A stretch of DNA of 64,000 nucleotides. Source: Candidatus Woesearchaeota archaeon (GTDB lineage: Archaea; Nanobdellota; Nanobdellia; Woesearchaeales; ARS49). This document shows, in pieces, positions 1 through 48,057 of the stretch. Made by a program: the position numbers and the translations under genes. Location: positions 12,938-76,937 of the forward strand of contig WJJS01000001.1 of the NCBI GenBank assembly GCA_014729505.1, written 5' to 3'. The notes under the pieces were generated by a model. That model saw only the letters and a list, made by a program, of their open reading frames with translations, did not search any database and was not told where the DNA came from. The first letter of the stretch is position 1; each line of letters starts with the position of its first letter.

Positions 1-2013
1 AATAACAAGACGACCAGTGCATTTATTTTCCATAACCTTCTCAGCCCGTAGTAACAATTTCTCAGCAAACAACGGACAATCAATAACAAGACTTTCAAAC
101 TCCCCGCCCTCGCCAGCAACATTAAGACCTCTCTTTTCATGTAACCGCTGCAACTGTTTCACATCATCTCTGGTAATACTCCTGCCAAGCCACGACTCAT
201 CAAGACCATCACCAGCAATAGCAGTAAACCACAACACAAAACCATGATCGAGCAATTCGCGCATCTGCACCTCTTGAGGCTTATGCCACAAAGGAGAAAA
301 CATCTTGAGACCGAGCTCGTCACAAATACGCTCGATACGATCGCGCTGATATGTAGAAAACAAGGCCCCCGTTACGATACCTTGAATACCATACTGCTCT
401 TTTGCCGCACGAATAGTATGTTGCAGATCCAACAATTCCTTTTCCTTTTCACCAATAGTATTACCAATAACAAGAGGCAGACCCATTGATTGAGCCTGAA
501 GTGTTGTCAAATCAATAGTTGGCGTATGAAACATGAACGAATCAGGATTAGATGATTTCATCGTTATCAAACACGTCAACTCATAATTCTGCCTTTTCAT
601 AACATAAGCGGCATACGTACTGTCTTTACCTCCGCTAAATAGAACACCAAGCTTAACATTATGAGAAGGATAGAACTGAAGAAGATATTGTGACTTTAAG
701 AGTCCCTGTCGTTTTGCAAGTTTACCAATCGCATGATCAATTTTTGAACCGTACTGAGCAGCAATTTTCTTACGAGAAGCAAACTCCTCGGGAACACCCC
801 ATTCGCGAGCAATATCTCTTAACAATAACTTAGTAAGATCTCCAGAAATCTTATACTCGCCAGGAACACGCAACACATACTCGACAAGCGAACGATCAAG
901 AAAAGGAAGACGCAATTCAAGATGCAAAGCCATCGTAATAACATCATCACGATATAAATCACGCTCATACATCTTCAACAAACCCCACACACATTCCTTG
1001 TTCACATCCAGAGCCTTTTTATGACGTTCATACCCTGCAAAAATCTCCTCACTACCAAGACCAGAAAAAACAACCTTGCAACCATCCTCTTTAGCCAATT
1101 CACAAGCAAGAAAAAAAGTCAGTGCAACACCAACCTTCACCACATTAGAATCCTCAATAAGAGGAACAATACGAGACAAATACTGTGGAATATCATCTCT
1201 AGCAAGCTCGCGGACTTTAAGAGGTACGTCAAGAGCACGGGCAGCCCTTATAGCAGCATCAAGATCCTTAGCATTCGCATCTTTGATAGCCGCAGTGTAC
1301 AACGTGACTTCATGTCCATGATCCTTGAAATATTTAGCAAGAACAGTGCTATCCAAGCCACCACTAAACAACAATCCAATTTTTTGATGAGGAATTCGCT
1401 TTTTAATAGCCTCATCGAGCAAAGCTGCAGTTCTTGATTTAATACACTCATACGATTCAGTATGTTCGGGAAGATGCGTGACAAAAGAACGTTGTTGCCA
1501 AGAAACCGTATGAGAAGACACCTCAAAGAAAAGCAGTTGGCGAGGAATGAGTTCCTGCACATTTTCATACCCGAGATTCTCGAGCACTTTTTTTTCAGAA
1601 GCAAACGCAAAGACCTCGGTCGTATACACATACCACAATGGTTTGACACCAAACAAATCACGAGCAAGTAATAGTTGACCATCCCTTAGATACGCAAACG
1701 CAAAGACGCCGTCAAGAGAGGAGAGACACTCCTGACCGGACTCGTCGAGTACTCTGAGAAGAGCCTCCGCGTCATTTGCAGCATCAAGAACCAGTTCTTT
1801 CCAATTATAAATCTCACAATTAGCGACAAGCGTTCCACGACCAGACAAGGGCTGAGCAACATGATCAACAACAGCATGCAACGTATGACCAAGACAGCCG
1901 CCAGGCACCGGCTTCAATGCCTGTCCATCACGACCCCTCTCTTTAAGCAAACAAAGCGCTCTGCGTACCTGGGACTCTGCAGACGGGCCAAAAATACCTA
2001 CAATACCACACAT
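1..2013 (-). CDS. asnB: Glutamine-hydrolysing asparagine synthetase (AsnB) fused in-frame to a Dph6-like (MJ0570-family) PP-loop ATPase domain. The 3' end runs off the window start, so the CDS is partial.
   Basis: The minus-strand N-terminus reads MCGIVGIFG (Ntn Cys2). The AsnB PP-loop LFSGGLDSTVLA is near 1340-1375, and GLGSEEIFAGYERH and RDDVITMALHLELRLPFLD motifs follow. The same frame then continues without a stop or an internal start codon into NVKLGVLFSGGKDSTYAA ... VAGEGGEFESLVIDCPLF, which are diphthine-ammonia ligase-like motifs. I found no stop codon down to position 1. The ORF is absent from the supplied track, presumably because its stop lies outside the window. Confidence 0.6.
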   Translation of the reverse strand, partial: MCGIVGIFGPSAESQVRRALCLLKERGRDGQALKPVPGGCLGHTLHAVVDHVAQPLSGRGTLVANCEIYNWKELVLDAANDAEALLRVLDESGQECLSSLDGVFAFAYLRDGQLLLARDLFGVKPLWYVYTTEVFAFASEKKVLENLGYENVQELIPRQLLFFEVSSHTVSWQQRSFVTHLPEHTESYECIKSRTAALLDEAIKKRIPHQKIGLLFSGGLDSTVLAKYFKDHGHEVTLYTAAIKDANAKDLDAAIRAARALDVPLKVRELARDDIPQYLSRIVPLIEDSNVVKVGVALTFFLACELAKEDGCKVVFSGLGSEEIFAGYERHKKALDVNKECVWGLLKMYERDLYRDDVITMALHLELRLPFLDRSLVEYVLRVPGEYKISGDLTKLLLRDIAREWGVPEEFASRKKIAAQYGSKIDHAIGKLAKRQGLLKSQYLLQFYPSHNVKLGVLFSGGKDSTYAAYVMKRQNYELTCLITMKSSNPDSFMFHTPTIDLTTLQAQSMGLPLVIGNTIGEKEKELLDLQHTIRAAKEQYGIQGIVTGALFSTYQRDRIERICDELGLKMFSPLWHKPQEVQMRELLDHGFVLWFTAIAGDGLDESWLGRSITRDDVKQLQRLHEKRGLNVAGEGGEFESLVIDCPLFAEKLLLRAEKVMENKCTGRLVI

Positions 2014-2054: not shown

Positions 2055-3866
2055 TTATAGATTACTGCGCTCAAGAGCAAGATTATGCGCTTTGATATAA
2101 TTCTCAACAAAATGCTTCCAATCCGCAGTCTCGGCGAGCTTTTTTGCACTAATGCGGTTCTCTGTACGTTCATGCTTTGACAAATGAGCAAAATCGTACA
2201 TGACATCAGTGAGTTTTTGAATCGCCAACTCCTCAGATTGTTTACGAGGAATCACAAAAATACCAGGAAAACGACCCTTAGCCTTGTCCTGCACGTACGA
2301 GCCAAAACCGGCCACGTCAGTAGTAACCGCGCTTACCCCAAGAGCACTAGTCTCAAGAGGAGTATAGCCCCAGGGTTCATAAAATGAGGGAAAGATACCG
2401 AGATTTCCGGCATTCAATGATTCTCGATACGTCAAATCCAACAAACCATCCGCACCCGTCAGATAAATCGGGTAGAACACGACCTTTACAGGATCATCCT
2501 CGTCATTAGCAAGACCTTCTTGACCAAGCATTGATAGAATAGGATCGGACTCTTCATGGTACAAATCATGAGTAGCCACCGGCGGTTTTCCCGACTGTTT
2601 TAGGCGACGAATCTTCACTTTCAAATCCTGCAACAAATCCTTATCAAAAATATTCTCCTTAGAAATTTGCTTTCCAGACACCAGCAAGTACGTTAAAGTA
2701 TTGCGTAACTCCTCGCCGAGATCATCAATATCATCCTTAATATCAAAAAAGTGAGAACGATTCTCCAACAATTCTGATTTAATGCTCTTCATACCGGCAG
2801 GAACCCAAAAGAACGTGATGATTGTCTTATTGGTTTTTTCCTTTTTGAGCCTCTCATTAAGACGGCTCAAGGACTTAATCAGCACATCAATACCCTTATC
2901 ATGAAACTCGTACCTTCCAGCGATAAAATAAATCAGCGTGTTTTCCAAATCAAACTCGTAATAAGGAAAAAAATAGTACATAAGAAACGTATGAATGCGT
3001 TGCTTAAAGATACGATGACGCACAGCAGATTCATCAAGAGTGGGAAACTTCGCAAAATCAAGACCATTTGTCACAATCACGTCGGGTTTTCTACCCAAAA
3101 ACTTCTCAGCCTCGGCACCAGTAATCGCACTAACAGTCGTAAACACATCAGCCTCACGAGCACAAATACGCTCCATCTGCACCTTTGCCCACAAGCCAGG
3201 ACCATGACGCTGCGCTTCACTTGGAGAAATAGAATCAAGCTGGTAAATATCCACTTTATTTGTTGCAAGAGTCCTGCCAAGCATAGTAGCATGAGTGGTG
3301 AATACGGATCCAAGAGGGACATTTCTGTCTTTACAATAGAGTAAAGCCGCACCAGACATCCATTCATGAGTATGCAACACTGTTTTTTTGTTGAAGATAC
3401 CGGTCAATTCCTCAACAACACGACCAACCGCCCAGGCCCACACGACAGGCTCATCAAAATCGTGATACTGCGTCGACAAAGAATCAAGCTTGAAACGCTC
3501 CCATAACAAGGTTTTTATCTCATTATTCTTATACTGGAAATCAGTATAATCAACAAGCATAACCTTAGGGGTGCCCTTAATCAACCATTGACCAGTATGC
3601 ACTTCAATGCCGACTTGTTTTAACCGTTCAAAGCAATCTTTGCACTGTTCGGGTACGGGGGTCTCCTCAAAAATACCGCGCAATTTATCAGGAAAATACG
3701 GTCCGATAAGGTAATAATTCTCATAATTCTCCTGCATAGAAGGAGCTTTAGACGTGACAACAGTGTAGATACCGCCAACTTTATTGCACACTTCCCACGA
3801 CACTTCAAAGAGAAGATCAGCACGAGGATCCATACGCTCATTCACGACTGCCGCGTATATAAACAT
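2055..3866 (-). CDS. Glycogen synthase, eukaryote-type glycosyltransferase family GT3
   Basis: The N-terminal motif FEVSWEVCNKVGGIYTVVTSKAP...YYLIGPYF matches the GT3 glycogen synthase signature EVAWEVANKVGGIYTV. The protein is 603 aa. Confidence 0.75.
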   Translation of the reverse strand: MFIYAAVVNERMDPRADLLFEVSWEVCNKVGGIYTVVTSKAPSMQENYENYYLIGPYFPDKLRGIFEETPVPEQCKDCFERLKQVGIEVHTGQWLIKGTPKVMLVDYTDFQYKNNEIKTLLWERFKLDSLSTQYHDFDEPVVWAWAVGRVVEELTGIFNKKTVLHTHEWMSGAALLYCKDRNVPLGSVFTTHATMLGRTLATNKVDIYQLDSISPSEAQRHGPGLWAKVQMERICAREADVFTTVSAITGAEAEKFLGRKPDVIVTNGLDFAKFPTLDESAVRHRIFKQRIHTFLMYYFFPYYEFDLENTLIYFIAGRYEFHDKGIDVLIKSLSRLNERLKKEKTNKTIITFFWVPAGMKSIKSELLENRSHFFDIKDDIDDLGEELRNTLTYLLVSGKQISKENIFDKDLLQDLKVKIRRLKQSGKPPVATHDLYHEESDPILSMLGQEGLANDEDDPVKVVFYPIYLTGADGLLDLTYRESLNAGNLGIFPSFYEPWGYTPLETSALGVSAVTTDVAGFGSYVQDKAKGRFPGIFVIPRKQSEELAIQKLTDVMYDFAHLSKHERTENRISAKKLAETADWKHFVENYIKAHNLALERSNL

Positions 3867-3928: not shown

Positions 3929-6550
3929 TCAGTATTTCCTGAACAGCTTCACGATTTCGCCGAAAATCAAAACACTGGACGCTACAGCAGCAGCAATCAT
4001 CCAATCCATAAATGAAAGCGGAATCGTCTCAAAAAGAGTATTGAAAATACCAAGATGCACACTTGCAATTTGCAAACCAAAACTGAGCAACACCGCACCA
4101 ATCAACCATTTGTTAGACCATAACCCTACCGTAAAAATTGATTTCGTCTCAGAACGCTGATTAAGCACGTTAAACAACTGGAAAAGAACCAAGGTAGTAA
4201 AAGCCATCGTTTGCGCATATGTTTTATTCACCTCAGGCTCGTACCATTCAAACACAAAAAGAGTGCCAGCCATCATCAAAAGGCCAATAAACAACATAAG
4301 ACCTGCCCTGCTCTTGTTAACAATCTTTTCATCAATATCGCGAGGCTTTCGCTCCATAACTCCCGGTTCTTTAGGATCAACACTTAAACTCGTCGCAGGC
4401 AATAAATCAGTGGCAAGATTAATCCACAAAATCTGTCTTGCAGTTAACGGATCAATAAGGCCGAGAAGCGTTGCCACAAAAATAGTCAAAATCTCGCCGA
4501 CATTGCTTGATAACAAGTATATGACAAACTTCTTGATGTTATCATAAATAACGCGACCTTCTTCAACTGCACGAACAATAGTTGCAAAATTATCATCGGC
4601 AAGAATCATATCGCTGGCCTGACGAGAAACATCAGTACCAGTGATACCCATTGCAATGCCAAGATCAGCCTTCTTTAAAGCAGGAGCATCATTAGCACCG
4701 TCACCCGTCATAGCAACAATATGCCTGTTCTTACGCAGTGCATCGACAATATGCAGTTTATCCTCTGGATTAACACGGGCATAAATACTAATCTTTTCAA
4801 CATCACGCGAAAGATTGATAGACTCAAGCTCTACACCCTCAATAGCCCTGCCCTCAAGACCAATCTGTTTACCAATCGCTTTAGCAGTACCGAGATGATC
4901 GCCAGTAATCATCACCACCTTGATACCTGCAGCATTGCACGTCTTAATTGCTTTTTTAACCTCCTCTCGAGGAGGGTCAATCATGCCCTGCAACCCAATA
5001 AAGATCATGCTCTTTTCAATATCATCATGACTCAATTCATCCTTGAACTCCTTATAACAAAAACCAAGAACGCGCAAAGCCTGACTGGTAAATTCATCAT
5101 TTGTTTCAAGAATATGATCCCGATCCTCTTTAGTCAGCCGACGAACCTTTCCATCAACCAACATATGAGTACAAAAACCAAGCACCACTTCAGGAGCGCC
5201 CTTCGTATACGCCGTCTTCTTACCTTCAAAAGTGGAATGAATCGTCGTCATACACTTGCGTTCAGAACTAAAATCGATTTCATCAACGCGCGTATTATCA
5301 GAACGCACCTTGTCAAGATCAATACCTGACTTTGCTGCACTGACCAATAAAGCACCTTCAGTAGGGTCACCGACAATACTATGACGGCCCTGCTCCACAT
5401 CAAGCTGGGCATTATTGTTCAACACTCCTGCACGCAATAACGTATCAAGAGAGGATGTCTCTTTGGAAAAATCACCCTTTGGTTCATAACCAGAACCAGT
5501 TACCTGAACCACCTGTCCATCAACATACAGTTTTTTAACAGTCATCTCGTTATGCGTCAGCGTACCCGTTTTATCGGTACAAATCACCGTACACGCGCCC
5601 AGCGTTTCAACACTTGGAAGCTTGCGCATCAACGCCTTCTTCTTAGCCATGCGCTGCACGCCAAGAGCAAAAGCAATAGTAACCACTGCAGGCAAACCCT
5701 CAGGAATAGCAGCGACTGCAAGGGCAACAGCCTTTTCAAACACTTCAAGAAGATTTTTACCCAACAACACATCAACGCCAATCATCACCATAGCGATCAA
5801 GACCACCGCAGCAGTAAGCTGATATGCCAGTTTCTTGAGATCCTTTTGTATCGGCGTGGGCTCGCTTTTTGTCTTTTTGAGCATAGTTGCAATCTTACCG
5901 ATCTCAGTACGCATGCCAGTAGAAGTGACAACCGCCTTGCCGTGACCGGCAGTAACTGTCGTGCCAGAAAACACCATATTCTTCTGATCACCAATAGACA
6001 AACGATCAGCAATTCTCTTCACATCCTTTTTAACAGGAACAGATTCCCCGGTCAAAGCCGCTTCCTGCGTTTGCACATTCACCGCATCAATAAGACGAGC
6101 ATCTGCAGGCACAATATTACCTGTCTCCAGCACAATAATATCGCCCTTCACCACTTCTTCAGCAGGAATTTCGCGCCGACGACCATCACGAATAACAATG
6201 GCCTTAGGACTCACCATCTTACGCAATGCTTCAATAGATTCCTCGGCCTTATACTCCTGCCAAAAACCAAACAACGCATTAGCAATAACAACAATTGTAA
6301 TAACGTAAAAATCAATAAACTCTTGTAAAAACAAAGAAATACCCATCGCTGCCAAGAGAATCCAGACAAGAGGACTTGTAAACTGATGCAAGAAGATCAC
6401 AAACGGACTTATCTTCTTTTCACGCTCAAGAGCATTTTTACCAAACTTTTGCAAACGCTCCTTAGCCTGAGATTGTGATAATCCTTCCTTAGAAGAAGCA
6501 ACCTTATCAAATACCTTCTCCAAAGGCAGTTGATACCACTCTTTTTCCAT
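3929..6550 (-). CDS. P-type cation-transporting ATPase (P2/Ca2+-type-like)
   Basis: Motifs [24 protein letters not shown] and [21 protein letters not shown] are present. The protein is 873 aa with multiple transmembrane segments. Confidence 0.9.
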
Positions 6551-6648: not shown

Positions 6649-7491
6649 ATGGTGAATGCAAGCGACCTGCTCACAACAACATACGTAACCTGTGATGTAA
6701 ACGACAGAATCTCCTCATTATTAGGAAAAATGAAACGAGCACAGGAAGGAGCTGCAGTCGTAACAAAAAAAGGAAACTATCTTGGCATTGTACATCGCAG
6801 TGCATTTCTCGTCTCGCGAGCGCATGCCAGCGATACAAAAGTAGCAAATATTTACCAACGCCGAAGCAAAGCAAAATCAAACTTTTTTGTACCAACATTA
6901 TCACGCACTTCTTCACTGCCAGTCATGTGCAAACGCATGCTGCAAAGCAATTCACGCATGCTGCCCGTCATGGAAAAAGACCGACTAATAGGAGTAGTTA
7001 AAGATATGGAGTTACTTAAGGCGATAGCTCCAGATTTCTCATCAATACCTGCATTTGAACTGGCAAGCACAGATTCAATAACGGTGAGAGAAAACAACGT
7101 TATTTATGCGGCCATGACTGCTATGAAAAAACACAAGATCGGACACATTCCTGTAGTGGATAAGAACGGAAAACTGTTAGGAATCCTCAGCGGTTATGAT
7201 TATCTGGAAATGCACTTACACTCACGATCACGAATGCATCAGTCACGCAAAGGAACACATTCTGACTACAAAAACCGAGGATTTGATACGGGCGAAAAAA
7301 TAAGTCTTGGAGACTTACCAGTACGAGATTTTATGAGCGAAAAAGTAATCACTGCAACGCCGCGCACAACAATCGCACAATGCATACAACTCATGATAGA
7401 CAATAATGCGCACAGCATTGTTCTCACACGATACGACAAGCCAGTAGGAGTACTTACCTGTCACGATATATTTATTCACGCCGCTCAATAG
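6649..7491 (+). CDS. CBS-domain pair protein
   Basis: Repeated CBS-like segments are present, for example GHIPVVDKNGKLLGILSGYD. A TATA-like AT-rich stretch lies upstream at about 6600-6640. Confidence 0.65.
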   Translation: MVNASDLLTTTYVTCDVNDRISSLLGKMKRAQEGAAVVTKKGNYLGIVHRSAFLVSRAHASDTKVANIYQRRSKAKSNFFVPTLSRTSSLPVMCKRMLQSNSRMLPVMEKDRLIGVVKDMELLKAIAPDFSSIPAFELASTDSITVRENNVIYAAMTAMKKHKIGHIPVVDKNGKLLGILSGYDYLEMHLHSRSRMHQSRKGTHSDYKNRGFDTGEKISLGDLPVRDFMSEKVITATPRTTIAQCIQLMIDNNAHSIVLTRYDKPVGVLTCHDIFIHAAQ

Positions 7492-8320
7492 AAACGCCGG
7501 GAGTAAGAAGTTCCCGCGTAGATAAAGGACAGACAAACGAGGGCAACACTGGTTCTCCAGTACTTCGATTTTCAATTGTCGCGTCATGTCGTGATTGATC
7601 TCTTGAAAGAATGGCTCCGCGTGTTGCACGAAAATGAGTATACAAACGCGCAGCAAGTTCTTGCTCTGTAGGACCAACAATAGTATATTGTTGTCCATTG
7701 GACAATAAATGAACCTGCAACGGCATCTTATACGGCAAAACCAGTTCAGGACCATGAGCACTATTATCAAGATCCTGAGCAGACGCTGCAGAACCATTAG
7801 GATGCGAATGCCAGGTCAGTACATACTCGTGATTCGTTTGAGGACGACCATACGTGTGAGGCAAAATATGTTGACGAGCAACATGTTCAAGAACCTTACA
7901 ATCATCATCACTCCATTCATTTTTTGAAAGCAAAGGACGCGCTTTATCAATCGCTTCTACAACGCCAGTATTACCGGTACGCACGTGCACCCGGCGGGCG
8001 CGAGCAAACAGGCTCTTCATATTGTCAAGATGCTGTGCAGAACCCTCACGTAATTCATTGACATACTCGATCAAGTCAAGAAATTCATTACGCAAAGGAA
8101 CAACAATATAGCGTCCGTTACTCTCGCGGACAATACCGCCAGTTTCATACCCTTGTGTCAACTCGTGATTAGTCTGACTAAGCAAATCACTGCGTGTTTG
8201 ACTGTCCTCAAGCATTTGCATAACGCGAGGACGAATCTCGTCAAGAGAAATGGTGTGCTCGGGCGCGGTACAACCCGCAAGACCGGCCAGTACTATTGTT
8301 GCTAAACGTCGTCCACTCAT
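7472..8320 (-). CDS. Hypothetical lipoprotein with a lipobox and a possible JAMM-like HxH...S..D patch
   Basis: The N-terminus is MSGRRLATIVLAGLAGCTAP (lipobox LAGC). The internal WHSHPNGSAASAQD stretch resembles a metal-binding HxH motif but is imperfect. Confidence 0.45.
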   Translation of the reverse strand: MSGRRLATIVLAGLAGCTAPEHTISLDEIRPRVMQMLEDSQTRSDLLSQTNHELTQGYETGGIVRESNGRYIVVPLRNEFLDLIEYVNELREGSAQHLDNMKSLFARARRVHVRTGNTGVVEAIDKARPLLSKNEWSDDDCKVLEHVARQHILPHTYGRPQTNHEYVLTWHSHPNGSAASAQDLDNSAHGPELVLPYKMPLQVHLLSNGQQYTIVGPTEQELAARLYTHFRATRGAILSRDQSRHDATIENRSTGEPVLPSFVCPLSTRELLTPGVSIERRE

Positions 8321-8344: not shown

Positions 8345-9133
8345 TTATAAAGGTTTCGGTGATTGGCGATACTGATAATAGAGTATTGCGCTGCCCGCGA
8401 TACACATAACGATATTGAACACCTGACCCAAGGTCAAACCAAGCAGACTTGGTTCGCCCACACGCAAAAACTCAGTACAAAAGCGAAACACTGCATATAA
8501 AATGAGCCAGATCGCAAGAAGACTTCCCGGACGAAGACCGCGATCACGCAAAAGCCACAGCACTACAAAAATAACAACATTATACGCGACTTCATACAAC
8601 TGGTTTGGATGACGAAACACCAATTGACCAAAAGCGTCAGTTTCACCACCAAAATTAACACCCCAGGGAAGCGACGTGACACGACCAAACAGTTCGCCAT
8701 TAATGAAATTACCCATCCTGCCAAAGGCTTGCCCAAGGGAAAGCGGCACAATCAAAAGATCGCCAAGCGAGAGCAACGATAAGCCAAAACGACGAGCAAG
8801 AATATACGCAGTAATAATCATCGCTACAAGAGAACCATGAAAACTAAGACCACCCTTCCAAATAGCAAGAATTTCAACAGGATGAGCAAAATAATAACCG
8901 GGCTGCCAAAACAGAACCTCAAACAGCCGCGCTCCAATAATCAACGCAACAACAAGCCAGACCATGAGCGAGTCCAACTGCTCAAGAGTAAGCGCAGTCT
9001 TTTCTTGACGAATACGACGACGAACATACCAGTACGCAAACAAAAAGGCCAAGACGTACATCACGCCATACCAATGAATCCTCAAAGGGCCAATACTAAT
9101 GAGGACCGGATCAATCGTGTGAATCCATACCAT
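8345..9133 (-). CDS. lgt: Prolipoprotein diacylglyceryl transferase
   Basis: ISIGPLRIHWYGVMYVLAF ... GRMGNFINGELFG matches the Lgt signature region. It is a polytopic membrane protein of 262 aa. Confidence 0.75.
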   Translation of the reverse strand: MVWIHTIDPVLISIGPLRIHWYGVMYVLAFLFAYWYVRRRIRQEKTALTLEQLDSLMVWLVVALIIGARLFEVLFWQPGYYFAHPVEILAIWKGGLSFHGSLVAMIITAYILARRFGLSLLSLGDLLIVPLSLGQAFGRMGNFINGELFGRVTSLPWGVNFGGETDAFGQLVFRHPNQLYEVAYNVVIFVVLWLLRDRGLRPGSLLAIWLILYAVFRFCTEFLRVGEPSLLGLTLGQVFNIVMCIAGSAILYYQYRQSPKPL

Positions 9134-9893
9134 ATGTAGCTAATGAAAAAAGACGAATAAATGATAAGAGCGGAAACAGCGCAAGACCAACAACAAATCC
9201 TGCAAAAGGACTTAACAGATTGACGCTATAGATAATGACCTGAGCGAAAGCAAGACTGCCGGCAATCACGACCATCATAGGAACAAAGAGTTTCCAACGT
9301 CGAAGCCCGAGACGAAACGCGTAACGCACATTCAAGGAACCATACGAAATAAGAGCGAAATACACAAGAGCGACAAGCAAGATATAGAACGGAATAAAAG
9401 GCCATACAGGTTTTGTCGTCGAAGTAAGCGATGCAATAAGAGTGTAGCGCAAATCAACATAGAGCAAAGCAAAAAACAACACAAGACCGGAGATAAACCA
9501 TGGCAGATTTACCAAAAAGAAACGAAGAAAAAACCTCTTGACTTCATACATAAGCAAGCGTCTAGACAAATGCCACGCCAAACCCTGAAGAACACCATAC
9601 ACGACGTAAGCAATCAAACCCGCAAGCAGCGTATATAGCACAAACCGCAGTACAAGAGGTTGCAAAGTGCTATGAGACACTAACGTCCACACACTAAACG
9701 AGTCAAGCTGTTGCAACACTTGACCGATACCAGTAGTCAGCGTAAAGGACAATTCCAGTAAACGATCAACAACAGGAGCAGTAGCAAAACCTAGCACAAA
9801 AAGAAAAGAGACATCAATAAGACCAAGAGCAAGCACCACTAACACATTGTTTTTCATCACTCGTGCAGTATAGTAAATACTCTTTTGTAACAT
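9111..9893 (-). CDS. Hypothetical polytopic membrane protein
   Basis: 260 aa and hydrophobic throughout. It is co-directional with lgt and overlaps it by 23 nt. Confidence 0.45.
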   Translation of the reverse strand: MLQKSIYYTARVMKNNVLVVLALGLIDVSFLFVLGFATAPVVDRLLELSFTLTTGIGQVLQQLDSFSVWTLVSHSTLQPLVLRFVLYTLLAGLIAYVVYGVLQGLAWHLSRRLLMYEVKRFFLRFFLVNLPWFISGLVLFFALLYVDLRYTLIASLTSTTKPVWPFIPFYILLVALVYFALISYGSLNVRYAFRLGLRRWKLFVPMMVVIAGSLAFAQVIIYSVNLLSPFAGFVVGLALFPLLSFIRLFSLATYGMDSHD

Positions 9894-16036: not shown

Positions 16037-16831
16037 CTATTTTCGCGTTGATTTCCTGCTTTTTTTCTTCGTTGCCTTCTTCTTTTTACGCGAAACAGAT
16101 TTTTTTGCGGTTTTCTTTACAGGTTTTTTTGCTTCTTTAGACCTGCCCGTTGATTTTTTAACATTTTTTTTACGCGCCTTGATCGAAGGAATAACCGGTT
16201 CTTCAGGTTCCACAAGAGGAGACTTACTGCGACGACGAGAACGCCAAGCGCCTACCATGATCATGATAAACACTCCAATGAGTACAATCATAAGAGCAGA
16301 AAAGAACGTCACGCCGGAGACTCCCTGAATGATGCCAGTAAAAAAATACCCTGTCCATGCAAGAGCAAACAGCACGTACAGTACCACCGCAATCGTCGCT
16401 ACCGCCTTGACCAAGAAGTCAGCAATCCTGCTTGACGGAAACATAAGCAAGATAGGCAACAATACCAAAACAAATGCGATAATAAGAAGAAAAAGCGATA
16501 CAATAAGAGCGACAACAAGGAAAAAAGACGTAACAGTCACATACGACCATGCAATAAGATGCTGCATATATGAAGCTTGAGCGCCAACAACGAGCGTTGT
16601 CACATACGTATATGCCGCAGCAAGAACCACACCAATAACACAGTATGACCAGCGAACTACAGCACGCGCAACAGGATGGGCAACGTCACGAAGACCTGCC
16701 TTAACAAAAGAAAACAACAACGCAGCAACAGCAATAATAATAGCGGATTCCCACAATACCGTAGAACTCACCGTTTGAGCGATATCATGAGGCCTCCACA
16801 ATAAGGAGAGAAAAGCATACCAGTCGATCAT
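16037..16831 (-). CDS. Polytopic membrane protein with a poly-Lys C-terminal tail
   Basis: About 6 TM helices are followed by KARKKNVKKSTGRSKEAKKPVKKTAKKSVSRKKKKATKKKSRKSTRK. Confidence 0.5.
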   Translation of the reverse strand: MIDWYAFLSLLWRPHDIAQTVSSTVLWESAIIIAVAALLFSFVKAGLRDVAHPVARAVVRWSYCVIGVVLAAAYTYVTTLVVGAQASYMQHLIAWSYVTVTSFFLVVALIVSLFLLIIAFVLVLLPILLMFPSSRIADFLVKAVATIAVVLYVLFALAWTGYFFTGIIQGVSGVTFFSALMIVLIGVFIMIMVGAWRSRRRSKSPLVEPEEPVIPSIKARKKNVKKSTGRSKEAKKPVKKTAKKSVSRKKKKATKKKSRKSTRK

Positions 16832-17517
16832 TTTTTATTCCTCTTTCTTACTTTACGAGTCCTGGTAGTATAAGTTTCTTTCGCTGCTGTCGCTCTACGA
16901 AAAAAACCAGAACCTCGCTCAAGAAGACGACCCCACACGCCACGAGCAGAACCGATCAGTGCTGCACCGATTACTGCAAACAATACAACAGCTGCAGAGG
17001 AAAAGCGACTGATCTCGTTTGCATGAGCAACAGAAGTAATATGAACGATCAAACCAAAAAGGAAGGAAACAAACGAAAAGATCCACGTACAAATGACGAT
17101 CCATCCAATTATTGAAGGCATTTTATCATTTTTAACTACTCCTCGATTTTCGAAGAATACATACGTCCTAAGAAACAGAAAGTAAAGACCTGCAAGGAGA
17201 ATACCATACACCCCGATAATCACTGTAACAGTCAACATTACATAGAGCAAAAAAGCCACATTGATCTGAAAATCCACCACGCCACTAAAAAGAGCGCTTG
17301 CCAGAGTGATATATACCCAGTATCCTAGAAGAAACGCTGCAGTAGCAGCAAAACGTACCGCCCTGGTCTTCAAAGAAATAAGGACTTCATGTTTGCGTTT
17401 TCCGCTGCCAAGCGCTGCAAGAGCGAGCAGAATCACCACACCAATAGAAATGGTGATGCCCTCAATAAAATGTGCGGGCGGCACAGCCACTGAAATGATA
17501 AAATCACTGAATGTCAT
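16828..17517 (-). CDS. Polytopic membrane protein with a basic C-terminal tail, possibly a paralogue of the downstream gene
   Basis: Hydrophobic, with a tail RRATAAKETYTTRTRKVRKRNKK. It overlaps the next gene by 4 nt. Confidence 0.5.
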   Translation of the reverse strand: MTFSDFIISVAVPPAHFIEGITISIGVVILLALAALGSGKRKHEVLISLKTRAVRFAATAAFLLGYWVYITLASALFSGVVDFQINVAFLLYVMLTVTVIIGVYGILLAGLYFLFLRTYVFFENRGVVKNDKMPSIIGWIVICTWIFSFVSFLFGLIVHITSVAHANEISRFSSAAVVLFAVIGAALIGSARGVWGRLLERGSGFFRRATAAKETYTTRTRKVRKRNKK

Positions 17518-26346: not shown

Positions 26347-28515
26347 CTATTGCGCGTCGGTCAAACCCTTTCTCTCACGGATTTGTTTGACAACCTTGTC
26401 CTGCAATTCTCCTGGGAGCCGTTCAAAGACCTGATCGACGAGAGAACTGTTTCCACGACCGCCAGTCGCACTACGCAATTCTGAACTCCATCCAAACATC
26501 TCGGCGACAGGAAGCTTTGCACGAATCATCACCATAATATTCTCCTGATTCATATCAAGCAATTGTCCGCGTTTGTTACTGATCAATTTACTGACATCGC
26601 CCATATGCTCGACGGGAGCATCGATTTGGTGAATTTGCTTAGGTTCGTAAAGCACAGGAGTTGCCGCCATGATAGCCTGACGAATACCGTCGCGAACAGC
26701 AGGATACATCTGCGCAGGACCGCGGTGGATCGCATCCTCGTGAAGCTTTGCATCCATCAAAGAAACCTTCACTTTAACACAAGGCTCTCGCGCAACAGGA
26801 CCTGCATTCATAACATCTTCAAACATGTCAAGAACCATTTCCATAATCTCGTTAATCTGCACAATTCCTCTCGTCAAATCAAGAAAGACACAACCGTTAT
26901 GGATATCCTTAACACTCAATGCAACCTTGTTATCCCAACCGCAAGCAACAAGCACGTCACGCATTTCCAGATCTTTCTTTTTAACGCGACCTTCACTAAT
27001 CTTACCTTCTCTGATAGCATCAATAACTTCTTGTTCGAGAGGTTCAACCTTGAAGTACAACTTGTTGTGCTTATTAGGAGATTTTCCTTCAAAAGTATCA
27101 GATTCTCTTGTAACATTTTCACGATACACGACGATAGGAGGACTAGTTTTTACCTCAACACCCTTCTCAGACTTAATACGATTCTCAATAATTTCAAGAT
27201 GCAATTCTCCCATGCCGTGAATCAAGTGTTCGCCTGTCTCCTCATTGATCTCGACTTTAAGCGTAGGATCCTCCTTGACAACCATTCTCAACACTTCAAT
27301 AAGTTTTGGAAGATCGCTAGGTTTTTTTGCCTCAATAGCTTTAGAGACAACAGGCTCAAAAATGTGTGTGATCTCTTCAAAAGGCTCGGTAGGTTCTGTA
27401 GTAATCGTCTCACCAGGAAACGCTTTGACGCCAGCCAAACCAATAACATTACCAGCAGGACTACTCGGCACAATATCACGCTTTGCACCATTAAAGACAA
27501 AAACCTGCTGAATACGACTGGGCATCTTGGCGCGATTCAAATATACACTATCGCCTTTACTAATAGTGCCGGAAAAAATGCGACCACAGGAAATCTCACC
27601 AGCCTGAGGATCGACGACAACCTTAGTGATACAAATAAAAGTAGGCCCTTTTGGATTTGCTGCAAGAAGAGACTTGCCCTCCTCACTTTCAAGATCTCCC
27701 TTCCACAATTTAGGAATGCGATATTTTTGAGCCTGCGTAGGACTTGGATGATGTCGAATACACATGTTAAGAATCACTTCATGAATAGGTGCTTTTTTCT
27801 GCAAGACCTTATACGCTTCACCGCCCTGTTCATATGCATCAATAATATCCTTAAACCCAATATTATTTCTTTGCATATACGGAACTGAAAGTGCCCAATT
27901 ATGAAATGCACTGCCAAAAGCAACAGTACCATTTTGTACATCAACCTGCCACTCCTTCTTATATTCTGCAGGAGCAATGTTTGCGATAAGCTTATTCACT
28001 TCACCAATCACCTTCAAAAAACGCTCCTGCATTTTGTCAGGGGCAAGCTGCAATTCCTTTATCAAACGATCAACCTTATTGATGAACAAAACAGGCTTAA
28101 CACGCTCTTTTAGAGCCTGACGCAAAACCGTCTCGGTTTGAGGCATAATACCCTCAACAGCACACACAAGAACAATCGCACCGTCAATAGCGCGCATAGC
28201 ACGCGTTACGTCACCGCCAAAATCAACGTGACCCGGCGTATCAATAAGATTAATCAAATATTCCTTGCCATCAAACTGATGCACCATTGACACTGCAGCA
28301 CTATCAATAGTAATACCACGAGCCTTTTCATCCTCATGAAAATCAAGAGCGCAAGCCTTACCAGCGAGTAACTCACTCATCATGCCAGCTCCCGCTAAGA
28401 GATTATCAGAAAATGTAGTCTTACCGTGATCAATGTGAGCACAAGTACAAATATTACGGATTTGATCGGGCTTGCTAGAAATTTCTGCAACCCTTTCTGA
28501 CATCTTTTTAGCCAT
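26347..28515 (-). CDS. fusA: Translation elongation factor 2
   Basis: AHIDHGKTTFSDNLL and DTPGHVDF motifs. The protein is 722 aa. Confidence 0.95.
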   Translation of the reverse strand: MAKKMSERVAEISSKPDQIRNICTCAHIDHGKTTFSDNLLAGAGMMSELLAGKACALDFHEDEKARGITIDSAAVSMVHQFDGKEYLINLIDTPGHVDFGGDVTRAMRAIDGAIVLVCAVEGIMPQTETVLRQALKERVKPVLFINKVDRLIKELQLAPDKMQERFLKVIGEVNKLIANIAPAEYKKEWQVDVQNGTVAFGSAFHNWALSVPYMQRNNIGFKDIIDAYEQGGEAYKVLQKKAPIHEVILNMCIRHHPSPTQAQKYRIPKLWKGDLESEEGKSLLAANPKGPTFICITKVVVDPQAGEISCGRIFSGTISKGDSVYLNRAKMPSRIQQVFVFNGAKRDIVPSSPAGNVIGLAGVKAFPGETITTEPTEPFEEITHIFEPVVSKAIEAKKPSDLPKLIEVLRMVVKEDPTLKVEINEETGEHLIHGMGELHLEIIENRIKSEKGVEVKTSPPIVVYRENVTRESDTFEGKSPNKHNKLYFKVEPLEQEVIDAIREGKISEGRVKKKDLEMRDVLVACGWDNKVALSVKDIHNGCVFLDLTRGIVQINEIMEMVLDMFEDVMNAGPVAREPCVKVKVSLMDAKLHEDAIHRGPAQMYPAVRDGIRQAIMAATPVLYEPKQIHQIDAPVEHMGDVSKLISNKRGQLLDMNQENIMVMIRAKLPVAEMFGWSSELRSATGGRGNSSLVDQVFERLPGELQDKVVKQIRERKGLTDAQ

Positions 28516-40009: not shown

Positions 40010-40324
40010 ATGGGACATACCGTATGGAGCCAACGGATGAATGCAGAGCGCATCATCACAGAACTACTTCGTTACAAGAAAGCATTGCGAAGCGAACAAC
40101 AAGCACTGTTTGACGAATTACTGAAACGATCCATGAATCATCTCGGTACCATAAGTTACGCAAACAGCATGCACACCTGGGCATTACTGCTCTTATCAAT
40201 ACTACTAGAACAAGAACAACGCATAAAGAAACTAGAACATGTGGTTAATAGATACCTATCAAAAAAAGAACAAGATCGTCGTGTGGCTGAAAACGAAAAC
40301 GACGAATATGCATCGAACCTATGA
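40010..40324 (+). CDS. Hypothetical protein; 3' end overlaps the polymerase gene start, so the extent is uncertain
   Basis: 104-aa ORF that overlaps 40239..42794 by 86 nt in another frame. Confidence 0.3.
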   Translation: MGHTVWSQRMNAERIITELLRYKKALRSEQQALFDELLKRSMNHLGTISYANSMHTWALLLLSILLEQEQRIKKLEHVVNRYLSKKEQDRRVAENENDEYASNL

Positions 40325-42794
40325 GTACTCTGTCACACTCTACGCACACGAAGATGCACGAGAATTCCTTACAACGAACAAGATTGCTTTTACAGAACAA
40401 CTCAAAAAAGATCCTTTTCGCAACAAGAAACATGTTCTTGCCATAACGTTATCATGCGAACGACTCGCACCATTTGTAAGATGGTTTGAACTCGGCACCA
40501 AACACCGCATACCGCTTTACAATGCAGATATCACGCCGGAACAACGCTTTCTTTACGAGAACAAGCTAGTACCGTGCAGCAACGTGCGAGACGTTGATGG
40601 GAGACTTGTACACGTCAACGAATCCGCACCACCGCTAAGCACTGTTCATTTGCGATGCGCCACACAAGGACCTATTACACGATTAGAATACCAGGATCAC
40701 ACTATCGTAGGCGAGGAACGAGAAGTACTCGCGCATTTTACGCAACGCTTCAGACAGGACGATCCAGATGTACTACTTATGCGACGAGCATACAAAGCAG
40801 TACCACATCTCTTTGAACGGTTACGTGCGAACGGATTGCACGTGCCTTTTCATCGATGGGATGAGATACCGCTGCGCCACCGCGGCGGCAAGACACACTT
40901 CAGTTACGGAAGAGTATATTATCAAGATCACTCGTTTCAACTGCGAGGACGATTACTCGTTGACACGGCAAGCAGTGTAGGATCAACATGCTCTGTACCT
41001 GCAATCATCGAACTTGCACAGCTCACAGGCACTCGATTCCAACGCGTAGCAGCACGCAGTTTCGGTGCCTCATTTCAACTTCAACTCGTCAAAGAACTGC
41101 TCGCCCAAGATCTGCTTGTGCCATACAAGGAAAAACCCTTTGATGAACCGCTGCGCATGACAGAGTTATTCGACGCAGACAGAGCAGGACATACCTTTGA
41201 TCCTCAACTAGGATTTCACAATGATGTTGTAGCAATAGACTTCTCAAGCATGTATCCATGGATCATCCACAACTACAACATCAGCGCAGATACCATACTC
41301 ACAAAAAAAGGAAAGAAGACCAAGATTCCTGCAGTACCAATTGATGTAACCACACAATATCAAGGAGTGATACCAAAAGCAATCAAACCATTGTTAGATC
41401 GACGCATGTACTACAAAAAACATCCGACGCCGGAAAACAAACGACGAGCAATAGGACTAAAAACACTGCTCGTGACCTGTTATGGTTATCTGCGATTTCG
41501 CGAATTTAAAATGGGACTTGCCACATCACACATGGCAATTTGTTCATACGCGCGAGAACTCCTCCTACAATCAGCAACGCTTGCAGAAGAACAAGGCTTT
41601 CGCGTCATTCACGGCATCATCGATTCACTCTACATATCAAAAAAAGACATTACCACAACAGAAGTCGAAACATTTCGAAAAGAACTAGAACACATGAGCG
41701 GTATACCCGTTGCCTGCGATGGCATCTTCAAATGGATCGTGTTTCTTTCACGACGACATGACAACACTGTCGGAGTGCCGGCCCGTTATTTTGGCGCATA
41801 TAAAAATGGTGGCATTAAAGCAAGAGGTATTGAAGTACGACAATCGAGTGCGCCGCTACTTATACGACGATTCCAACAAAACGTGTTAGAAGAGCTCGCA
41901 GCGTTTTCAACGAAAAGAGCGATACAGGATCACTTGCCACAAGTCATGAAACGCGCACGAGCAGTCCTGCACGATCTGCCTGCGACGCCACGAGAAGAAC
42001 TGTGTTGCAGAATACGCATCAGTAAGACCACGTATTCTCGAAACATTCCACAACGGCAAGTGATACGCTTGTTAACACAACAAGGGAGAGACATTATCGC
42101 TGGACAGGTCATACGGTTCTGGTACAGTGCGAATGGACCGTTACTAGTCGATATGACTGGAAGGCCAGACTACAAAAAATATCGCGATTTGTTATTACGC
42201 GCAATACACTCAGTGTACCAGCCTTTCGGTTATACTACCAAACAACTACAACACCTCCTATTAGACGAATATCAAAGCGTTCTGCAAGATTTTGCGCGAC
42301 AACAGATCCGCTACGAATACGTGCCTATGAAAAAACACTATGCACAAAAACGAGGACTGTCAGAGAGAATCCTGCGACAACGACTGGAACGACAAGGATG
42401 GACGGTGTGGCGCGGCGGCAGCATACATATTACTCGTTATGAAGAACTGTATCCCAACGTACGACGAAAGTACGAATTACTCATCCGTCTGCTTGACGAT
42501 CATAAGCCAGACACAAAAGAAATACTGCAATATTATTGCATGATACAGCACGGCATGCCAGATTTTCTCTGCTACAAAAATGGACGATTCAAATTTGTTG
42601 AATGCAAATTGCAATACGAGCAATTAAGTCATCGACAAAAACGCTGCATTATGAAGCTACAAGACCTGGGATTTGATGTGGAAGTTCACAAACTCGTTGA
42701 CAAACGCACAAAAATGAGAGAGGCACTAGTTGACATGTTTACCAATTGCAAAATAGTACGAGAACGACAACTAGCCCTACTCTCAACATGGTGA
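40239..42794 (+). CDS. Divergent family-B DNA polymerase (exonuclease-dead, motif C degenerate; PolB2/Dpo2-like) fused to a C-terminal PD-(D/E)xK Hjc/VRR-NUC-like nuclease domain
   Basis: The PolB N-terminus is WLIDTYQKKNKIVVWLK.... The exonuclease region is present but Exo I reads LRCAT, not FDIET, and Exo II has no YN..FD. GRLLVD and motif A DFSSMYPWII are present. Motif B is K..LVTCYGYL, the KxY region is YFGAYKNGGIKARGIEVRQSS, and motif C is IHGIIDSLY (vs YGDTDS). The C-terminal domain reads ERILRQRLERQGWTVWRGG ... GMPDFLCYKNGRFKFVECK (D...E-x-K). Confidence 0.65.
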   Translation: MWLIDTYQKKNKIVVWLKTKTTNMHRTYEYSVTLYAHEDAREFLTTNKIAFTEQLKKDPFRNKKHVLAITLSCERLAPFVRWFELGTKHRIPLYNADITPEQRFLYENKLVPCSNVRDVDGRLVHVNESAPPLSTVHLRCATQGPITRLEYQDHTIVGEEREVLAHFTQRFRQDDPDVLLMRRAYKAVPHLFERLRANGLHVPFHRWDEIPLRHRGGKTHFSYGRVYYQDHSFQLRGRLLVDTASSVGSTCSVPAIIELAQLTGTRFQRVAARSFGASFQLQLVKELLAQDLLVPYKEKPFDEPLRMTELFDADRAGHTFDPQLGFHNDVVAIDFSSMYPWIIHNYNISADTILTKKGKKTKIPAVPIDVTTQYQGVIPKAIKPLLDRRMYYKKHPTPENKRRAIGLKTLLVTCYGYLRFREFKMGLATSHMAICSYARELLLQSATLAEEQGFRVIHGIIDSLYISKKDITTTEVETFRKELEHMSGIPVACDGIFKWIVFLSRRHDNTVGVPARYFGAYKNGGIKARGIEVRQSSAPLLIRRFQQNVLEELAAFSTKRAIQDHLPQVMKRARAVLHDLPATPREELCCRIRISKTTYSRNIPQRQVIRLLTQQGRDIIAGQVIRFWYSANGPLLVDMTGRPDYKKYRDLLLRAIHSVYQPFGYTTKQLQHLLLDEYQSVLQDFARQQIRYEYVPMKKHYAQKRGLSERILRQRLERQGWTVWRGGSIHITRYEELYPNVRRKYELLIRLLDDHKPDTKEILQYYCMIQHGMPDFLCYKNGRFKFVECKLQYEQLSHRQKRCIMKLQDLGFDVEVHKLVDKRTKMREALVDMFTNCKIVRERQLALLSTW

Positions 42795-42882: not shown

Positions 42883-43659
42883 ATGCACAAAGCATTAACG
42901 ATAGTATTGCTAGGAATTCTTCTAGTTGGATGCTCAACAACACTAGACACGTCGTCGACAAATCCGCCAACAGCGCCGCACTCAACTTCAAGTCCTCCAA
43001 CAACACAACACCCCGCAACAGAGAACAATTCACAACACACCACAACACAAAATGATTCACAATATCCGACAACGCAGAACGATTCACAACACACGGCAAC
43101 CAATGACTACGTTGCGGGACGAGAACTCTTCAAACTACAACGGGATTCAGACAGTGCACTGGGACAACGAGTAACAGACTTTTTCCCACTTCCTGCAGGA
43201 GCAGTTCTTGTCGAGACAAGACATTTTGGAGCGCAACAATTCAAAGCAAATCTTGTATCAAAAACAGGAGACATATTTCCTTTAGTCAATGATGAAGGAT
43301 ACATTCTTACCACTACGCTGCACTCTTTTGCGGCAGGCCAGTACCTGCTAGACATGATCATCAATGGCGAAGTTACCTTTATCATACGAACACCGGACAT
43401 AGAAGAAGCAACATCATGGAGCGGAGCCGGCAAGAAGTTCACCCCCTTCTTTACACTTTCAGGAACCAACACCTTTGAGATGTCGTTTCAAGGAAATGGA
43501 TTATACATCGTGTCACTATACAATCAAGCAGGAGAACGCATCGCCGTACTTGCACAAGGCGACACCACAGAAAAAACAAACACTGACGTAACCGTACCAC
43601 AAGGACTCTATCTGTTAGGTATAGAATCAACAGGAGTCTGGGACATACAACTCAAATAA
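42883..43659 (+). CDS. Lipoprotein with a Thr/Gln-rich repeat linker
   Basis: MHKALTIVLLGILLVGCSTT (lipobox LVGC) and repeats TTQNDSQ(Y/H)(P/T)TTQNDSQHTAT. Confidence 0.55.
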   Translation: MHKALTIVLLGILLVGCSTTLDTSSTNPPTAPHSTSSPPTTQHPATENNSQHTTTQNDSQYPTTQNDSQHTATNDYVAGRELFKLQRDSDSALGQRVTDFFPLPAGAVLVETRHFGAQQFKANLVSKTGDIFPLVNDEGYILTTTLHSFAAGQYLLDMIINGEVTFIIRTPDIEEATSWSGAGKKFTPFFTLSGTNTFEMSFQGNGLYIVSLYNQAGERIAVLAQGDTTEKTNTDVTVPQGLYLLGIESTGVWDIQLK

Positions 43660-46346: not shown

Positions 46347-46664
46347 TTGATCATGACACCTCTCGATTATCTGGCAGTCTTTGAAGAACTTCGACGATAC
46401 GACGATGATCTTCCTAATAGAGAATTTGATGACTGGCATCCGTCATGGCCCAAACTGAAAGGCAGAGGCAATTCAATAGTGGGGTTACTACTCTATTTGC
46501 ATTTAGGACAAAGGCAGGGTTTGTTTGGAGATGAAGTAGAAGGTTGCCTTAGGCACGAATGGAGTGTGAAATCAGGACGTTATACGACGCCAGAAGAGAT
46601 AAAGTTGATCAACAGAACCTTAGACTATGTTATAGAGTATCTGCGAGAAACTACTTCACGATAA
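46347..46664 (+). CDS. Hypothetical protein
   Basis: 105-aa ORF. Confidence 0.35.
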   Translation: MIMTPLDYLAVFEELRRYDDDLPNREFDDWHPSWPKLKGRGNSIVGLLLYLHLGQRQGLFGDEVEGCLRHEWSVKSGRYTTPEEIKLINRTLDYVIEYLRETTSR

Positions 46665-48057
46665 ACTGCGCTTTATTTGACTGTACAGAGCCCTTCTTGT
46701 CACCAGCACTGAAATGAACAATGATAGGATCGAGCGTGATTGTTCCAATCATTTGCACACGACTGCGAATCTTATACGTGACAAAGACTTCTTGACGACC
46801 TTCAACATTTTTGAATTCCCACTTAATACGAGTGCCAAGCGTGTCATGAGTGGACTTACTCTTCAAGGTCGCAACAGCAGAGGGTTTAACATGTCCAGGA
46901 CCGAATTCGCTTAGCACTTCAAAGACCTTTGGCACTTTTTCCACCAAGGAAATATCAACAGGAGAACGCGATCTATTGCGCACCTGTACATGAATAGAGA
47001 GCTCCTTACCACCATGATGGCGACGAATATTCTTCTTGACGACAACAGGAGCGCGAAACATATAATACGCTCCAAGCGCCAGTAACGCGATAATAATGAA
47101 AATAAGAATAGGCCAGTAATTTTTTGAGACCACAATAGTCTTGGATTCTTCAGGATCTAACTGAACAGTCCACACATACACACCGTCTTCTCGCTCAACT
47201 GAAGGCTCAGTCGATGAAAATAAGTTATCAAACCAGCTAACATCAAAACGATACGTATGACGCTTCACATCATTACCATTGTTTGTAAGCGTCACCACAT
47301 CGCGTGTTCGCAAAAATGATGAAGAGGATTGCAACTCTTCGGCTACCTCGCCGTATTCTGCCACTCTAAAAGCAACAGGCGAAGCTTCCATGCGAATCGT
47401 ACGATTCTCGTGTTCAGTAACCAGTGTTGCGCGCAGTTCATCCTCTTGAGGACGAAGGTCAGGATCGAGATCTGCAGTAAACGTGACTGTTTTTGTCTCG
47501 TCAGGACCCAACGTTACCGCGTGCTGGGCATTAATCAAATTACTGCGCACGTACAAGGTCATTTCAGTGATGTTACGTGGGTTCAAGTTTTCCATTTCAA
47601 GAGAATATGTTATGGGTTGTCGAGGATCAACAGACTCGGCAATATGTACTGTGGAACGCACTGAAGGCGTATACAAACGAGGAGTATCCACTAGCGGTTT
47701 CAAACCGACTAGAGGAGTCTCTTTTTTGACAACGCCAAATTGTCGGGCACTAAACGTGATAGGAATAAGATAAAATGCAGGATCATCAACATGCACTTGA
47801 CGAATACGCAATTTTGTAGTTAAACCCTGCGGCGGAACCCGAAGAACGTCTTTTGTAGAGACATCCCAGCGAATGTCAAGGGTGTACATAGTAATATAGA
47901 CCGTTTCACTCGAGTCATGAGTAATAGTCATATCAAATTCTGCAGTTTCATTCATGCGGATCGAGCGTTCATCAGGAGAAATCTGCACATCAAAAGAAAA
48001 CGCAGCAACACCAAACGCGCACAACAACAAGATGACCAATACAGTAATTCGTTTCAC
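46651..48057 (-). CDS. Surface or membrane-anchored protein, hypothetical
   Basis: An N-terminal signal peptide and a C-terminal TM segment WPILIFIIIALLALGAYYMF. The protein is 468 aa. Confidence 0.5.
   Translation of the reverse strand: MKRITVLVILLLCAFGVAAFSFDVQISPDERSIRMNETAEFDMTITHDSSETVYITMYTLDIRWDVSTKDVLRVPPQGLTTKLRIRQVHVDDPAFYLIPITFSARQFGVVKKETPLVGLKPLVDTPRLYTPSVRSTVHIAESVDPRQPITYSLEMENLNPRNITEMTLYVRSNLINAQHAVTLGPDETKTVTFTADLDPDLRPQEDELRATLVTEHENRTIRMEASPVAFRVAEYGEVAEELQSSSSFLRTRDVVTLTNNGNDVKRHTYRFDVSWFDNLFSSTEPSVEREDGVYVWTVQLDPEESKTIVVSKNYWPILIFIIIALLALGAYYMFRAPVVVKKNIRRHHGGKELSIHVQVRNRSRSPVDISLVEKVPKVFEVLSEFGPGHVKPSAVATLKSKSTHDTLGTRIKWEFKNVEGRQEVFVTYKIRSRVQMIGTITLDPIIVHFSAGDKKGSVQSNKAQFIVK

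Follow-up and report, generated by a model that had tools for sequence, protein, structure and literature searches.

The first 2,013 positions of a 64,000-nucleotide stretch of a Candidatus Woesearchaeota archaeon genome (contig WJJS01000001.1 of assembly GCA_014729505.1, positions 12,938 to 76,937 of the forward strand; hereafter the window) carry on the minus strand an open reading frame (ORF) in which an asparagine synthetase-like (AsnB-like) part is joined to a diphthine-ammonia ligase (Dph6, DUF71). The ORF is one real in-frame gene with three modules in one polypeptide, and the protein belongs, as a Woesearchaeota representative, to the AsnB-DUF71 (Dph6) fusion family, with a class II glutamine amidotransferase (GAT-II), an Asn_synthase PP-loop domain and DUF71 in that order. 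The C-terminal module is predicted to be a bona fide Dph6 with all catalytic and EF-2-facing residues (EF-2, elongation factor 2). The N-terminal module, as judged from its residues, is of the AsnB family by fold and PP-loop and is not a canonical asparagine synthetase. We tentatively suggest that the whole protein is a glutamine-dependent diphthamide synthetase, in which the ammonia from the N-terminal glutaminase would be handed through the AsnB-like domain to Dph6.

Reading frame and distribution of the fusion

The gene and its modules are located in the window as follows.

1..2013, minus strand: fusion ORF, codons 1-671 of 680, in a continuous frame, 100% identical to the 680-aa database protein P0001
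1474..2013, minus strand: N-terminal nucleophile (Ntn, class II) amidotransferase domain, aa 1-180, with the Cys2 codon at 2008-2010, N65-C66-E67 and D81
673..1461, minus strand: AsnB-family PP-loop (synthetase-like) domain, aa 185-447, with SGGLDS at nt 1348-1365 (aa 217-222) and D352, R355, E366 and K416 kept
655..675, minus strand: short conserved linker FYPSHNV, aa 447-453, without a stop or start codon
1..654, minus strand: Dph6 domain, aa 454-671 and beyond, with SGGKDS at nt 619-636 (aa 460-465) and the catalytic motif GEGGEFES at nt 91-114 (aa 634-641)

On translation the frame runs for 671 codons without a stop from the MCGIVGIF start at nt 2013. The missing 3' end comprises only nine codons (TKASLAKKC) past the window start, as is seen from P0001, the NCBI protein 'diphthine--ammonia ligase [Candidatus Woesearchaeota archaeon]' (680 aa, 100% identity in the protein search), which is encoded on a 79-kb contig. 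Pfam recognises GATase_7 at aa 50-145 (1.9e-18), Asn_synthase (2.7e-49, best stretch aa 196-335) and Diphthami_syn_2 (PF01902) at aa 454-666 (1.5e-60). The initial annotation, made from the letters alone, had described an in-frame fusion without a stop or internal start that runs off the window, and had quoted the three motifs listed above; all of this holds.

The junction DNA reads TTC TAT CCT TCT CAT AAT GTT AAG CTT GGT GTT CTA TTT AGC GGA GGT AAA GAC AGT, and none of its codons is a stop, ATG, GTG or TTG. In the alignment of 42 homologues the linker residues F447, Y448, P449 and N452 are each at least 90% conserved. A frameshift or an internal start at the junction is ruled out by this conserved linker together with the lack of a start codon. 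The fusion might also be an artefact in which sequencing or assembly wrongly merged two neighbouring genes. The chance of this is negligible: we found no support for it, protein-level conservation extends across the junction, and no fewer than 120 proteins of separate assemblies, as well as at least 15 species-representative genomes, show the identical architecture. It is the recurrence of the same continuous frame in separate assemblies that excludes the artefact.

The best 120 matches of the protein search are full-length fused homologues with all three domains (56-62% identity, 675-740 aa). They come from NCBI, JGI, ENA, Tara and Logan assemblies, and the taxa named among them are Woesearchaeota, Nanoarchaeota or Nanoarchaeia. 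The lineage survey, a scan of species-representative genomes combined with local hidden Markov model (HMM) searches, finds the three-domain fusion in Woesearchaeota, Nanoarchaeota, Ca. Iainarchaeum (Iainarchaeota), Altiarchaeota, several metagenome-assembled genomes of Methanosarcinales and Ca. Methanospirareceae. The architecture is seen in L001-L015; in one of them, L014, the glutamine amidotransferase (GATase) is recognisable in its second half only. Longer variants also occur: P0127 (1005 aa) has about 340 extra N-terminal residues ahead of the AsnB-like match, and the 865-aa ORF L012:396-2990 has large insertions within the amidotransferase domain and ahead of the synthetase-like domain. 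The fused homologues P0031, P0093 and P0102 lie on near-complete contigs of 568, 663 and 614 kb.

The fusion is not new, although the initial annotation took it for undescribed. An AsnB domain N-terminal to DUF71 was reported for Methanohalophilus mahii, Methanosalsum zhilinae and Ca. Nanosalinarum sp. J07AB56 in 2012, and intramolecular ammonia supply was already put forward there (de Crécy-Lagard et al. 2012, Biol Direct 7:32, PMC3541065). Hundreds of AsnB-like-Dph6 fusion proteins are annotated by NCBI and JGI, and this exact protein is in NCBI nr. Our literature searches for later treatment of the AsnB-DUF71 fusion gave only the 2012 paper. What interest is left concerns the uncharacterised AsnB-like clade and the probable over-annotation of 'asparagine synthase' in reconstructions of DPANN metabolism.

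Residues of the Dph6 and AsnB-like modules

The C-terminal module scores 256.4 bits against the NCBIfam model TIGR03679 (Dph6_archaeal, cutoff 197.3) and covers model positions 2-215 of 218. Its phmmer E-values are 1.6e-56 for PH1257 and 3.7e-56 for PF0828, and in Foldseek searches with the predicted model the chains of these two proteins show 37-46% identity and TMt of 0.89-0.95. The N-type PP-loop is present as S460-G-G-K-D-S465, a motif conserved as S[SGT]GKDS in about 182 of the 188 fused homologues. E635-G-G-E-F-E640 fits the signature EGG(E/D)xE188, which distinguishes Dph6 from the DUF71-B12 subfamily with its ENGE(F/Y)H (PMC3541065). The EF-2-facing residues S44, Y45, E78, Y103, Q104, A149, E183 and E186 of PF0828 (PMC3541065) correspond, by alignment to 3RJZ, to S492, F493, E526, Y555, Q556, G601, E635 and E638; most homologues have Tyr at the F493 position and Ala at the G601 position. 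The assignment of this domain to the Dph6/MJ0570 family in the initial annotation is hence confirmed. Of other PP-loop families, PAB0415 and TTX_0299 fall far below their cutoffs (71.6 and 53.1 bits against 250), and DUF71-B12 is rejected by the absence of its motif.

The presumed protein substrate is encoded in the same window.

26347..28515, minus strand: EF-2 (fusA), with the diphthamide-site His597 in KLHEDAIHRGPAQ, AIHRG; codon 26725-26727

The histidine that the initial annotation had named for a check is therefore there. Of the dph1/2/5 genes that it had named beside it, dph2 and dph5 were not found among the 30 ORFs covered by the Pfam scan of the window, which spans 64 kb of the genome. 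Neither a further Dph6 gene nor a further AsnB-like one is detected in the window by local HMMs.

For the N-terminal module, the residues were mapped by HMMER alignments to E. coli AsnB (1CT9) and human ASNS (6GQ3, 8SUE), with the conservation taken across 42 sequences. The positions were tabulated across 80 genomic loci, and the 150 nearest representatives of 50%-identity clusters were also checked. Foldseek gives TMt of 0.74-0.79 to human ASNS and E. coli AsnB, with beta-lactam synthetase and CarA next. Among the NCBIfam models, TIGR01536 (asn_synth_AEB) scores 265.3 bits, just below its cutoff of 267.1, and PRK09431 scores 200.6 against 499. The catalytic residues of the glutaminase are kept (Cys1 as C2, the oxyanion Asn74 as N65, Glu76 as E67, Asp98 as D81), as are the SGGxDS loop at S217 and, on the synthetase side, Asp384 (D352), Arg387 (R355), human Glu414 (E366) and Lys449 (K416). 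In the family alignment C2, N65 and D81 are invariant, and there is little or no variation at E67, V103, K124, L215, F300, D357, E366 and L367; PMC6748925 and PMC11615228 served for the mapping of these residues. Several of them belong to the ammonia tunnel. The tunnel residues of human ASNS, including the gate Arg-142 and its partner Asp405 (PMC11615228), map here as follows: V119 to V103, V141 to V123, Arg-142 to K124, L255 to L215, M344 to F300, Asp405 to D357 and L415 to L367.

Three sites of asparagine synthetases are replaced. The Arg49 site (HERL) reads H43-T-L45-H46, with Leu45 followed by an invariant His46. The TTxR motif (IETYDVTTIRAS) is replaced by IEDSNVVKVGVA (nt 1123-1158), where V292, K293 and G295 form VKxG. 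Glu348 is replaced by L319, in FSGLGSEE (nt 1045-1068) instead of LSGEGSDE. At all three sites the replacement residues are conserved to 90% or more across the 42 sequences. Among the 40 bacterial loci that were aligned (26-31% identity), Arg49, the TTxR Arg and Glu348 are all kept except in L078; Arg49 is present in 39 of the 40. In the archaeal clade the TTxR Arg and Glu348 are absent from each member checked, and Arg49 survives in only a few representatives. Glu does not occur at the 348 position in any of the 150 nearest representatives: the residue is mostly Leu, in some cases V, I, M, T, N or S, and it is Gln in a more distant unfused subclade. A distant unfused subclade with SGQGADE at the Glu348 site and without Arg49 is represented by L017 and L018 (Methanobacteriaceae) and by L038 and L041 (Thorarchaeota).

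Arg49 is universal in Ntn glutamine amidotransferases and binds the glutamine alpha-carboxylate. Canonical asparagine synthetases form beta-aspartyl-AMP with the help of the TTxR motif and Glu348; for TTxR this role was reportedly shown by Boehlein et al. in 1997. The human equivalents of TTxR and Glu348 are T336, T337, R339 and E364. The human ASNS variants E364A and E364Q are inactive (PMC6748925). Since Glu348, TTxR and Arg49 are replaced, we do not file the module as an asparagine synthetase. It resembles a working amidotransferase in which the tunnel is intact, the acceptor pocket remodelled and the donor pocket altered. The label AsnB used in the initial annotation is hence only half right: it holds for the family, by fold and PP-loop, but residues needed by canonical asparagine synthetases are missing.

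The authors of 2012 worded the fusion as a true bifunctional enzyme, asparagine synthetase and diphthine-ammonia ligase, with one glutaminase serving both; here this would require a divergent aspartate site. The AsnB fold, with the TMt values and the 265 bits given above, and the retained equivalents of Cys1, the PP-loop, D384, R387 and K449 speak for it. We consider it improbable, since TIGR01536 stays under its curated cutoff, Glu348, whose human counterpart E364 gives inactive enzyme when mutated, is missing clade-wide together with the TTxR Arg, and Arg49 is missing in all but a few members, while the aligned bacterial loci keep all three save in L078. Genome papers add an argument in its favour: DPANN reconstructions list 'asparagine synthase' among very few amino-acid biosynthesis genes (PMC10266531). 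Those reconstructions may, however, wrongly count the AsnB-like module or its unfused relatives, because residues indispensable to asparagine synthetases are missing from the 'AsnB' half.

Proposed ammonia hand-off and its alternatives

We suggest the following sequence of events for the glutamine-dependent diphthamide synthetase. Cys2 would hydrolyse the amide donor, most probably glutamine. The ammonia would pass through the AsnB-like domain via the preserved tunnel; this domain would no longer make asparagine, and its ATP site may serve as a gate or a coupling site. The ammonia would then reach the rigidly attached Dph6 by a putative path and attack the adenylated diphthine on EF-2 His597 with the formation of diphthamide. 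The AlphaFold model of the whole three-domain chain has pLDDT of 88.5 and pTM of 0.84 and contains no disordered segment. As this whole-chain model is confident and the conserved linker has only 7 residues, the prediction suggests that Dph6 is held in a fixed arrangement against the AsnB-like module. Two further observations support the hand-off. The fusion recurs across five lineages of DPANN archaea and methanogens, namely Woesearchaeota, Nanoarchaeota, Iainarchaeota, Altiarchaeota and Methanosarcinales, and the independent Dph6-RidA fusions of eukaryotes fit the same theme of ammonia supply.

The architecture varies within the archaeal clade. Among the 150 representatives about 52 have Dph6, about 60 have only the GATase and synthetase-like domains, and about 27 have only the synthetase-like domain (about 300 aa). 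The proteins of the second group are 440-500 aa long, several of them with a natural C-terminus. In a neighbour-joining tree of the synthetase-like domain the fused and unfused forms are interleaved within the non-Glu clade, which is suggestive only, as the tree is crude and has no support values. About 182 of the 188 fused proteins retain Lys416 and have two intact PP-loops; among the rest are a few lineages with decay of loop 1 and Lys416 and one with decay of the Dph6 site.

The glutaminase is less constant. The fused protein of L013 (Methanospirareceae; L013:55-2286) starts with MTR, so that Thr1 stands for the Ntn Cys, and has Asp for Asn74 and Ser for Asp98; these changes suggest that its N-terminal domain is dead or re-purposed. 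The fused representatives P0138 and P0177 likewise start with MTR(I)xG instead of MCG. In L014 (Methanohalophilus sp. RSK) the fused protein lacks the N-terminal Cys, and its GATase cannot be recognised over the first half. In L023:9995-11539 and L025:4612-6204 the AsnB-like PP-loop domain is joined straight to Dph6, with no GATase anywhere in the locus (stop-to-stop ORFs of 515 and 531 aa, or 500 and 523 aa from the first Met). From these sequences the glutaminase appears to be dispensable in some fused lineages. The two-domain architecture of synthetase-like part and Dph6 in L023 and L025 is not mentioned in PMC3541065.

Several of these facts weigh against the proposed hand-off. Glutamine use is not assured, because Arg49 is Leu here and is missing in nearly all clade members. 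The retention of PP-loop 1 and Lys416 in so many fused proteins is more in keeping with a second catalytic adenylation than with a passive conduit. The association must have some reason besides ammonia supply, because in some relatives the glutaminase is dead (L013, L014) or absent (L023, L025). Finally, unfused AsnB-like proteins of the same clade occur without Dph6 nearby. Hence for the window protein the plain view that the glutaminase feeds Dph6, which the initial annotation had raised as a possibility, seems plausible but incomplete; the hand-off is what we infer, and the relatives without a working glutaminase complicate it.

The same facts bear on the main rival explanation, in which the protein carries out two separate ATP-dependent reactions. 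The AsnB-like module would be an amidotransferase or amide ligase of its own for a non-aspartate carboxylate and would use the Ntn-domain ammonia at its own site, and Dph6 would use free ammonia, as the stand-alone archaeal Dph6 does. The module may act on EF-2 or on another translation component and be fused through a shared pathway or complex. The strong conservation of both PP-loops and Lys416, the tunnel preserved up to the AsnB-like site and the acceptor pocket remodelled in a conserved way, with V292, K293, G295 and L319 invariant or nearly so, are in favour of it. So are the stand-alone GATase-synthetase and synthetase-only forms and the persistence of the link between the synthetase-like domain and Dph6 where the glutaminase is lost; the same possibility was raised by a reviewer in 2012 (PMC3541065). 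However, no candidate substrate emerged and there are no conserved gene neighbours, one amidation suffices for diphthamide synthesis, and the fusion by itself does not identify a second reaction. We regard the two-reaction scheme as possible, though on the unlikely side.

A related proposal is that the conserved partner of Dph6 is the AsnB-like adenylating PP-loop domain and not the glutaminase. This domain would represent an uncharacterised archaeal clade whose remodelled acceptor pocket has Lys293 for Thr, Gly295 for Arg and Leu319 for Glu. We hold this proposal to be fairly unlikely. If it is true, the 'AsnB' calls in DPANN genomes are no sign of asparagine synthesis.

Gene neighbourhood and likeness to known systems

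Two genes follow the fusion gene in window coordinates.

2055-3866, minus strand: Glycogen_syn (PF05693), 603 aa, 1.2e-145, directly upstream of the fusion and ending 41 nt before its ATG
3929-6550: P-type cation ATPase, after the glycogen synthase gene

Pfam scans of the flanks of synthetase-only genes and an all-against-all BLAST of the flanking ORFs at 18 loci revealed no conserved gene neighbours. What recurs is limited to antisense ORFs within the gene and to the synteny of close relatives; HerA, an AspRS/AsnRS-type synthetase, a cytidylyltransferase and other neighbours are inconsistent between loci.

Some other ORFs of the window deserve mention. Lgt (prolipoprotein diacylglyceryl transferase, PF01790) is an enzyme of bacterial lipoprotein maturation, and a 262-aa ORF at 8345-9133 on the minus strand matches it over its full length (1.1e-70) on a contig that is otherwise archaeal. 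An 851-aa ORF at 40239-42794 on the plus strand shows an unusual pairing of a C-terminal VRR-NUC nuclease domain (aa 763-816) with a weak match to family-B DNA polymerase (7e-14, aa 280-632). Pfam gives nothing at 1e-5 for six ORFs of 229-468 aa: 7472-8320, 9111-9893, 16037-17517, 42883-43659, 46651-48057 and 50196-51122.

Among the closest known systems are the AsnB-DUF71 fusions of 2012, which have the same module order. The protein of Methanohalophilus sp. RSK, examined instead of that of M. mahii, shares the non-Glu348 signature; unlike it, the Woesearchaeota protein keeps the glutaminase triad of Cys1, Asn and Asp. The 2012 reviewer asked which of the two PP-loops consumes the ammonia and which reaction the AsnB-like one carries out (PMC3541065). 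The Woesearchaeota version is a good construct for this question, since its glutaminase residues are intact, in contrast to those of the Methanohalophilus sp. RSK relative.

With the stand-alone archaeal Dph6 proteins (PF0828, PH1257, MJ0570) the C-terminal module has in common SGGKDS, EGGExE and the EF-2-facing S492, E526, Y555, Q556, E635 and E638. Those proteins have about 220 aa, whereas in the fusion Dph6 makes up the C-terminal third of 680 aa. E. coli AsnB and human ASNS share with the N-terminal part the two-domain fold, Cys1, N74, E76, D98, SGGxDS, the hydrophobic tunnel lining and also D384, R387, E414 and K449. They differ in that the window protein has Leu for R49, VKxG for TTxR and Leu for E348 and lacks about 100 C-terminal residues; the identity in the Foldseek structural alignment is 22-27%.

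In yeast, plants and fungi Dph6 is fused to two RidA (YjgF/UK114) domains that may release ammonia, and the RidA-type part is essential in yeast. Unlike the AsnB-like module, RidA stands on the opposite, C-terminal side of Dph6, and the two are unrelated in fold and chemistry. Beta-lactam and carbapenam synthetases have no Dph6 partner and show only 15-18% identity to the window protein, which, unlike them, keeps the Cys nucleophile. They also have the AsnB fold, with the synthetase retargeted and the N-terminal domain no longer a glutaminase, and in this they parallel L013, L014, L023 and L025.

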